Below are positions 26,921 to 27,521 of a stretch of DNA of 64,000 bases, one piece after another. Below the pieces are notes generated by a model, which was not told the origin of the DNA, made no database searches, and saw nothing but the letters and a program-made list of their open reading frames with translations. Within the stretch, counting starts at the first letter, position 1. Each line of letters begins with the position of its first letter. Source of the stretch: Octopus vulgaris (Eukaryota); contig OX597824.1 in NCBI GenBank assembly GCA_951406725.2, forward strand, positions 15,190,001-15,254,000, written 5' to 3'. Both the position numbers and the translations under genes were made by a program.

Positions 26921-27521
26921 TATTTCTTTACTGCCCACAAGGGAGCTAAACACAGAGGGGATAAACAAGGACGGACAAACGGATTAAGTCGATTATATTG
27001 ACCCCAGTGCGTAAATGGTACTTATTTAATCGACCCTGAAAGGATGAAAGGCAAAGTCGACCTCGGTGGAATTTTAACTCAGAACGTAACGGCAGACGAA
27101 ATACCTATTTCTTTACTACCCACAAGGGGCTAAACACAGAGGGTATAAACAAGGACAGACAAACGGATTAAGTCGATTATATCGACCCCAGTGCGTAACT
27201 GGTACTTAATTTATCGACCTCGAAAGGATGAAAGGCAAAGTCGATCTCGGCGGAATTTGAACTCAGAACGTAGCGGCAGACGAAATACCTATTTCTTTAT
27301 TACCCACAATGGGCTAAACACAGAGGGGACAAACAAGGACAGAAAAACGGATTAAGTCGATTATATCGACCCCATTGCGTAACTGGTACTTATTTAATCG
27401 ACCCCGAAAGGAAGGAAGGCAAAGTCGACCTCGGTGGAATTTGAACTCAGAACGTAACGGCAGACGAAATACCGCTAAGCATTTCGCCCGGTGTGCTAAC
27501 GTTTCTGCCAGCTCGCCGCCT
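26921..27521 (-). mobile_element. SINE family B, head plus three ~184-bp units
   Basis: Units 26921-27105, 27106-27289 and 27290-27473; head to 27521. Confidence 0.92.

Follow-up and report, generated by a model that had tools for sequence, protein, structure and literature searches.

How a SINE comes to be stacked in phase, with each unit running to the natural end of the element and the next resuming at one internal base, is the question raised by a tandem array at 26921-27521 (minus strand) of the stretch of Octopus vulgaris DNA analysed here, the whole 64,000 nt of which is referred to as the window. This focal array consists of a 48-nt head followed by three units of 184-185 nt, and TRF resolves it as 3.0 copies of a period of 184 with a 92% match. 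An earlier note on this DNA, drawn from its letters, had proposed iterative self-targeted insertion, template jumping by reverse transcriptase (RT) or rolling reverse transcription of a circular RNA as the origin of such arrays.

Structure and classification of the element

Nineteen loci of one SINE superfamily make up 8.1% of the bases of the window, a stretch of animal DNA in which microsatellites are also abundant. Common to the copies are a 48-nt head and a core that extends to about position 167 (element positions are numbered from the first base of the head), after which comes one of two tail types: a long tail, which ends AAAGAAATA and gives a monomer of 232 nt, or a short/old tail. The natural 3' end of the long-tail form, GAAATA, is given by monomer k (39253-39484, plus strand), which is flanked by a 17-nt target-site duplication (TSD; 39228-39244 and 39485-39501). 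In monomer j (31340-31567, plus strand) the TSD is 12 nt when exact or 16 nt with one mismatch, and begins TATATC.

The short, dispersed, high-copy and non-coding nature of SINEs with a tRNA head is apparent both in the window and in sequencing run X1, where 565,164 contig records match a stretch of the window containing two SINE copies. Octopus tRNA-derived SINEs were reportedly described by Ohshima and Okada in 1994, and we take the present element to resemble the dominant SINE of the octopus, of the Ohshima and Okada type. Judged by eye against box consensus sequences, the head presumably carries an A-box-like motif and the unit a B-box-like one. ARAGORN found no tRNA gene and Rfam no tRNA match in the window, so that the 'anticodon-like' character once ascribed to the head loop is not supported. 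Across the window Rfam gave no match of any kind at gathering score and only two chance-level matches, which lie in the array. When the SINE was used as a query, metagenome contigs yielded only three loci, with chance matches of 19-23 nt, and the collections of viral contigs, genome contigs and plasmids yielded no match; a short-motif search of supplementary files (two of PMC4824008 and one of PMC13282606) likewise found no matching element. Assignment to the TRIMs with a Pol III promoter (Helenus/Cassandra) was rejected, as the monomers have unlike ends and TSDs of 12-18 nt; TRIMs are defined, in the available text of PMC10886601, by two LTRs and TSDs of 4-5 bp.

Arrays and their junctions

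The window contains seven arrays with 10 internal junctions. All six arrays listed in the earlier note exist, and a seventh, at 45808-46164, had been missed. The left side of a junction is the natural 3' end of the monomer, as established by the TSD-bearing monomers j and k, and the right side is one fixed site: at 10 of 10 junctions the sequence restarts at element position 49, the first base past the loop of the head hairpin. The junction had been called invariant, which is true of its register but not of its letters, since GAAATA directly followed by GGTATTTC is exact at six of the 10, one base off at three and two bases off at one. The claim that an array carries at most one head is borne out, with one head in five of the seven arrays and none in the other two. 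No array exceeds three units, and within-array divergence ranges from 3.6 to 7.6%.

The head of the focal array (positions 1-48; 27474-27521) differs by 2.1% from the young-head majority and contains the A-box-like motif; its hairpin (27461-27490) pairs positions 32-44 with 49-61, including four G-U pairs, around the loop UAGC at 45-48. Unit H1 (27290-27473, 184 nt) comprises the B-box-like motif, the shared core and a long tail to GAAATA. It is followed by H2 (27106-27289, 184 nt), the subfamily haplotype of which is unlike those of H1 and H3 at the shared non-CpG columns 17, 80 and 83, and by the terminal H3 (26921-27105, 185 nt), next to which stands a second AGAAATA and which has no outer TSD; all of these features lie on the minus strand. 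Array A (7000-7571, plus) has a head, two long units and a terminal body with a long-type start and a short tail. Array B (7944-8266, minus) is headless, with a first unit that begins at position 92 and then one long unit; a head fragment was sought nearby and none was found. Array C (11491-11857, minus) has a head from position 11 and two long units, and array G (23869-24290, plus) a head, two long units and GGTA. Array N (45808-46164, minus) combines an old head (16.7% diverged) with a young long unit from position 64 (6.0%) and an old-family body, and array R (59015-59509, minus) is headless, starting from position 93, with two long units and a chimeric terminal body that has an old tail. 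The last unit of A, N and R is thus not the 184-nt unit proposed earlier but a body with a different, short or old tail.

Several further details of these loci were recorded. In array C, the first 10 nt of the head are replaced at 11858-11870 (minus) by sequence that contains the reverse complement of GGCGGC, resembling a small 5' inversion. Both headless arrays (from 8266 and 59509, minus) begin at positions 92-93, at a GTCGAC palindrome at the base of a predicted stem-loop (91-101/115-125). A head-only SINE piece (58961-59008, plus) stops at position 48 and lies inside 19-nt direct repeats with one mismatch; it has entered array R at the old tail and points the other way from the array. At 9655-9725 (plus), a fragment consisting only of a SINE short tail is joined to the end of an unrelated repeat.

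The head hairpin and complementary ends

The predicted 13-bp hairpin, with its four G-U pairs, has position 49 as the opening base of its 3' arm; the mean pair probability of the hairpin is 0.98 in the focal copy and 0.81-0.97 in two other copies. The terminal GAAATA, as had been noticed earlier, is complementary to TATTTC; positions 51-56 provide its only perfect complement in the element, and the chance of a complement falling within the first five positions of the unit, computed after the fact, is about 0.003. Where the head is present, the hairpin is predicted to outcompete the GAAATA/TATTTC pairing (pairing probability 0.0 in three of three), and in the headless units the 3' end is predicted to pair with unit positions 3-8 in three of the six tested.

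Unit families and divergence

The unit statistics rest on 17 long units from one window. A further unit follows 10 of the 17 long tails and none of the nine short/old tails in the window (p=0.004), and the former share exceeds the 20% of copies flanked by one target that marks SINEU-type targeting. This count does not distinguish targeting from descent. Arrays A, N and R terminate in the short/old-tail body of another family. Array N, in which the old head has eight differences in 48 positions, the young unit 10 in 168, and the old body is present from its first base, is an old element interrupted at 48/49. The terminal bodies A3 and R3 have a long-type start and continue in another family (in R3, two differences in 36 positions and then 18 in 83, p=0.03), which indicates that the junction there was carried in and not newly made. 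Over positions 85-167, the terminal bodies R3 and N2 are 22-24% diverged.

Of seven pairs of neighbouring long units, six are unlike in at least one of seven shared non-CpG polymorphic columns; in four of the six the difference involves one or two columns only, for which recurrent mutation is possible. H2 is unlike both of its neighbours at three columns, and C1 lies nearer to monomer k (1.2%) than to its own neighbour C2 (6.0%); R1 equals R2 at every polymorphic column that both cover. In the comparison of divergence suggested in the earlier note, 13 array units diverge by 5.5% within arrays and by 6.6% between them (permutation p=0.009; non-CpG divergence 5.2 against 6.2, p=0.025), a result that weighs against a purely mosaic origin. 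Near-private variants are common to the units of each of arrays B, H and R, and one variant is found in four of eight head-adjacent units as against none of nine others (p=0.03, uncorrected). A strict age polarity along the arrays was tested in the window and not found; among the arrays with a long terminal unit, that unit has the most private changes in B and C and does not in G and H.

Target-site duplications and flanks

Young monomers outside microsatellites have a TSD in four of four cases, of variable length between 12 and 18 nt. An outer TSD, searched for to 600 nt upstream, is found in none of the seven arrays (p=0.003 against the four young monomers; p=0.01 if monomer p, which lies in (TA)n and was set aside as uninformative, is scored as being without one), and if only B, C, G and H are counted, in which the terminal unit is young, none of four stands against four of four (p=0.03). 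The absence at N and R says little, given that the old monomers m, o and i are likewise without TSDs. Plain insertion into a monomer would keep the outer TSD, and any such account thus also needs a deletion on the upstream side or recombination at a later stage.

TAT[A/T] occurs 0-2 nt behind five of seven terminal long tails (background 0.11), and the TSDs of monomers j, d and l begin with the same motif; the GG-TATTTC of the SINE thus fits the general target of the mobilising enzyme. A weak feature is the presence of G, GG or GGTA after three of the seven terminal tails. A T4 run is absent from three of seven arrays and, in the other four, stems from private changes or from the old terminal unit. 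The RTE insertion signature, according to the accessible part of PMC6007223 a run of T some 10 nt upstream of a TSD that itself begins with T, was checked by eye in four TSDs, one of which conforms to it.

The same joint in public sequencing runs

Four of 24 listed runs were compared with 39200-40290, a segment containing a long-tail monomer and a short-tail fragment: X1, X5 and X7 (organism labels A, C and B, respectively) as Logan contigs and X24 as raw reads, the joint counts being those of the three contig runs. X7, for which assembled contigs alone were used, is presumably RNA. All joint figures refer to 15 listed joints out of 1617. Among these 15, the top tail joint is a step back of 184 nt, in 52, 42 and 30 contigs of X1, X5 and X7, respectively, and six in-register tail joints add up to 145, 72 and 50 contigs. 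Joints that resume at 39317/39321, where old-type bodies start matching, occur in 34, 24 and 4 contigs (X1, X5 and X7), the intervening letters being not known. None of the 15 listed joints out of 1617 leads from the long tail to any other position; the genome-wide variation of junctions, which the earlier note had named as an argument against itself, is thus not seen among them. Some one-letter variants of the joint match subfamily starts in the window, namely C at position 49 (monomers j and p) and GGCATTT (old copies), and point mutation would produce the same. Array read-through yields the same contig junction as a circle.

A joint from 39315 to 39252, giving a head, 15 nt and a new head, is present in one contig each of X1 (depth 850) and X7 (depth 343), depth in contig runs not being equivalent to copy number. 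Joints from about 39420 to 39317 (42 contigs in X1 and 22 in X5, again with intervening letters not known) may be tandems of short-tail copies, in view of which the restriction to long tails is shown for the window only. As separate observations, the 39315-39252 joint possibly represents an amplified double-head subfamily, and the 5' joint of array N is without the same positions 49-63; a joint from 40217 to 39293 (X1, depth 516), where a short tail meets head position 41, has another restart register; and in X24, despite an organism label common to element-bearing runs, 24 of 12.9 million reads match and one contains the joint.

Origin of the arrays

The reading that we tentatively adopt, and hold at slightly below even probability, is that the arrays arose through LINE-driven insertion of the long-tail SINE into the GG-TATTTC of genomic SINE copies, with loss of the surplus head and then re-copying and duplication. 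The site would be cut because GG-TATTTC matches the general TAT[A/T] target of the enzyme, and target-primed reverse transcription would begin there. Long-tail RNA may be preferred because its GAAAUA end could pair with the TATTTC of the target, because array transcripts ending a few bases inside the next unit would match the primer, or on both grounds. The staggered overhang, homologous to the cDNA from position 49, could then prime the second strand in register; alternatively, the overhang might be lost with the upstream head, or the cDNA might replace that head. Annealing of the cDNA to the homologous target, or replacement of the head, would leave one head or none. Array read-through, 5'-truncated re-copying, local duplication and ectopic recombination would follow as second steps.

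Of the origins put forward earlier, iterative self-targeted insertion fits best. It is favoured by array N, where an old element is interrupted, and by the ending of A and R in the tail of another family; by the long-tail restriction (10/17 against 0/9), in which one tail type is used; by the mosaicism of neighbouring units, with six of seven pairs differing and C1 closer to monomer k; and by TAT[A/T] at five of seven tail ends, a target that the SINE site fits. The in-register contig joints and those at 39317/39321 point the same way, as do the joint of head, 15 nt and head, which a full-length insertion with a 15-nt TSD would give, and the T4 runs, which are absent or privately derived in arrays. 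Against it stand the similarity within arrays, the near-private variants in B, H and R, the chimeric starts of A3 and R3, where junctions were carried in, and a terminal unit that is not consistently the most private; the missing outer TSDs of B, C, G and H are left without explanation. A single hotspot for insertion of Alu into Alu and the sequential insertion of SINEU-3 are known from the available text of PMC2836564 and PMC4494074, respectively, and in that of PMC8466645 TATTT is the Pol III terminator of the Dip and Ves SINEs. The more far-reaching proposition, that the long-tail SINE guides itself, the end of its RNA pairing with the head-hairpin site, steering the LINE enzyme and stacking mosaic arrays across several species, is unlikely.

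In a competing model, to which we assign a real but minor share of the probability and which we consider somewhat unlikely, the junction had one origin or a small number of them, multimeric masters were transcribed and retrotransposed, and unequal crossing-over and ectopic recombination at the DNA level altered the number of units and exchanged terminal bodies and flanks, the invariance being one of descent. The headless, 5'-truncated dimers B and R, the chimeric A3 and R3 and the missing outer TSDs (seven of seven arrays) suit this model, as do the greater similarity within than between arrays (p=0.009) and the variant of head-adjacent units (4/8 against 0/9, p=0.03, uncorrected), and unequal recombination has been proposed for SINE arrays (available text of PMC10702118 and PMC11481361). 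However, retrotransposed multimers should bear TSDs as monomers do, subfamily haplotypes differ between neighbouring units, and the joint of head, 15 nt and head suggests that this site was hit a separate time. Moreover, in array N and the 39317/39321 joints old-type sequence comes to within about 11 nt or less of the junction, which would be rare by random crossovers in a 120-nt core. In its strictest form, with one multimeric master as the sole source, the model is ruled out by the mixed-family arrays and by units that differ at shared sites; of this objection, which the earlier note had raised against its own proposals, there remains that the junction may often be inherited, as the two chimeric terminal units and the same variant suggest.

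Template jumping, which we regard as improbable, would have the LINE RT work on RNA cut at the loop's 3' edge, with its 5' end at position 49 (GGUAUUUC), and hop to the 3' end of another long-tail RNA, so that an array forms in one event. GAAAUA/UAUUUC pairing would help the jump, the 3' end being predicted to pair with positions 3-8 in three of six headless units; the restart falls exactly where loop and 3' arm meet in a hairpin of RNA type, which has four G-U pairs, the head-only copy at 58961-59008 stops at position 48, mosaics are expected, and template jumps of R2 happen in vivo (available text of PMC3414825). It would, however, need old and diverged RNAs: the R3 and N2 bodies (22-24% diverged) require RNA from old loci, array N requires the pick-up of an old head as a third template, and the TSD is absent in seven of seven arrays. 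Least probable of all, to the point that we give it hardly any weight, is a retrozyme-like rolling circle, in which RNA cut in the loop would be closed by ligation to GAAAUA and RT would run round the resulting 184-nt circle. The unit length falls inside the retrozyme range of 150-450 bp (available text of PMC7229834), the register is fixed, the ends are complementary and R1 equals R2 at the polymorphic columns that both cover. Nevertheless, no Rfam ribozyme reaches gathering score in the window, the hammerhead core is absent from both strands of arrays A and H, and circular folds of the units are no better than those of shuffled sequences (z from -0.33 to +0.95 in six of six units, 54-62% paired; linear unit fold z 0.33 against shuffles). 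Furthermore, neighbours are unlike at shared sites in six of seven pairs, other families supply terminal units, and five of seven arrays have a head.

Candidate partner LINE and neighbouring elements

The 3' end of a non-SINE element at 19247-19316 (plus) resembles the long tail in 52 of 72 columns, a likeness equalled by none of 2000 block shuffles; its score of 59 is the best of any non-SINE place in the window, the runner-up reaching 53. Present in one copy, this element may be a candidate tail donor or partner LINE. The element end as a whole (18975-19316, plus) is single-copy, with the long-tail likeness in its last 70 nt and a possible coding remnant of about 17 codons upstream, and presumably recalls the end of a Tx1. 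Next to it, a fragment between (TAA)n runs (19340-19690, minus) contains a 51-aa frame that, like two other ORFs, had no Pfam match and matched unnamed clusters of the ESM Atlas at 0.95; we take it to recall the end of R4/Dong-type LINE proteins.

Other neighbours of the SINE copies were also noted. Monomer k lies inside a multicopy Tc1-like transposase remnant (39485-40080; Pfam HTH_SB, E 1.2e-8, below the curated cut-off). A repeat adjoining array G (24291-24505, plus) has a minimal-hammerhead-like motif at about 24374-24401, gave no Rfam match at gathering score and presumably recalls the end of a Penelope-like element. At 54191-54727 (plus) there is a stop-free frame of 178 aa, with no Pfam match at E 0.1, which we assume to recall the catalytic region of Tc1/mariner.

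Comparison with known systems

Headless, full-tail, mixed-family arrays were not found described in the full-text literature searched, outside which lie Repbase/Dfam, Ohshima and Okada 1994 and most subscription papers. SINE multimers and self-insertion hotspots are already known, and in other respects the element behaves as SINEs ordinarily do; the arrays of the window stand apart in that they unite complete tails with a restart at a single base of the head hairpin, bring several families together and take in most of the long tails. If the favoured insertion of the SINE into its own copies is true, one of the commonest repeats would spread largely by landing in itself, a safe-harbour strategy, and RNA-assisted target choice by non-LTR enzymes could be tested in a natural system of very high copy number. 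Repeat annotation and age estimates would also be distorted wherever an array is counted as one insertion or spread over numerous unclassified SINE families; for Octopus vulgaris the available text of PMC13282606 gives 893 families of 'unclassified SINE' with recent activity, which may include the present SINE.

The systems compared below are characterized from the available portions of the sources cited, to which PMC5804259 and PMC4758252 may be added as further comparison literature. Membership in the non-LTR retrozymes, which share short tandem units of similar length, was rejected: their defining features are a type I hammerhead carried by every unit and a highly self-paired circular RNA (PMC7229834, 10.64898/2026.07.22.740005), neither of which was found for the octopus arrays, and the latter possess a SINE head. 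The squamate sSat also has a tandem unit shorter than the SINE and one longer terminal unit (PMC10702118), both of which are found in the window. It differs in forming tens to hundreds of homogenised units, often subtelomeric; the octopus arrays are dispersed mosaics of two or three units with a true 3' end, and the four or more homogenised middle units that characterize sSat are absent from the window.

In the Dip and B2 SINEs a large share of copies is arranged head-to-tail (49% and 40%, respectively), with mixed families, as in the octopus (PMC8466645); their units are called full-length in PMC10702118, and the portions seen of these papers describe no fixed internal restart. Closer in lineage are the TSD-(SINE)n-TSD arrays of Scapharca broughtonii (PMC11481361), another mollusc, which are built of tRNA-head SINEs and, like those of the window, combine one complete head with head-truncated repeats, some of them including another family. 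Their internal units are, however, also tail-truncated, their outer TSDs are kept and arrays account for about 3% of copies; in the octopus window the units all run to the natural 3' end, the arrays have no outer TSDs, and a further unit stands behind 10 of the 17 long tails.

In common with the Alu hotspot (PMC2836564), the octopus arrays would involve sense insertion into one position of an element's own family. Alu forms nested copies with TSDs at an A-rich linker, in contrast to the octopus arrays, which have no surplus head, units in phase and a site in the tRNA-like head. The pair SINEU-3/Tx1-Mar (PMC4494074) offers the parallel of a target-preferring SINE that builds tandems through sequential insertion. 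There, the target is a Mariner element and the tandems sandwich the TSD, whereas the target of the octopus SINE would be the SINE itself.
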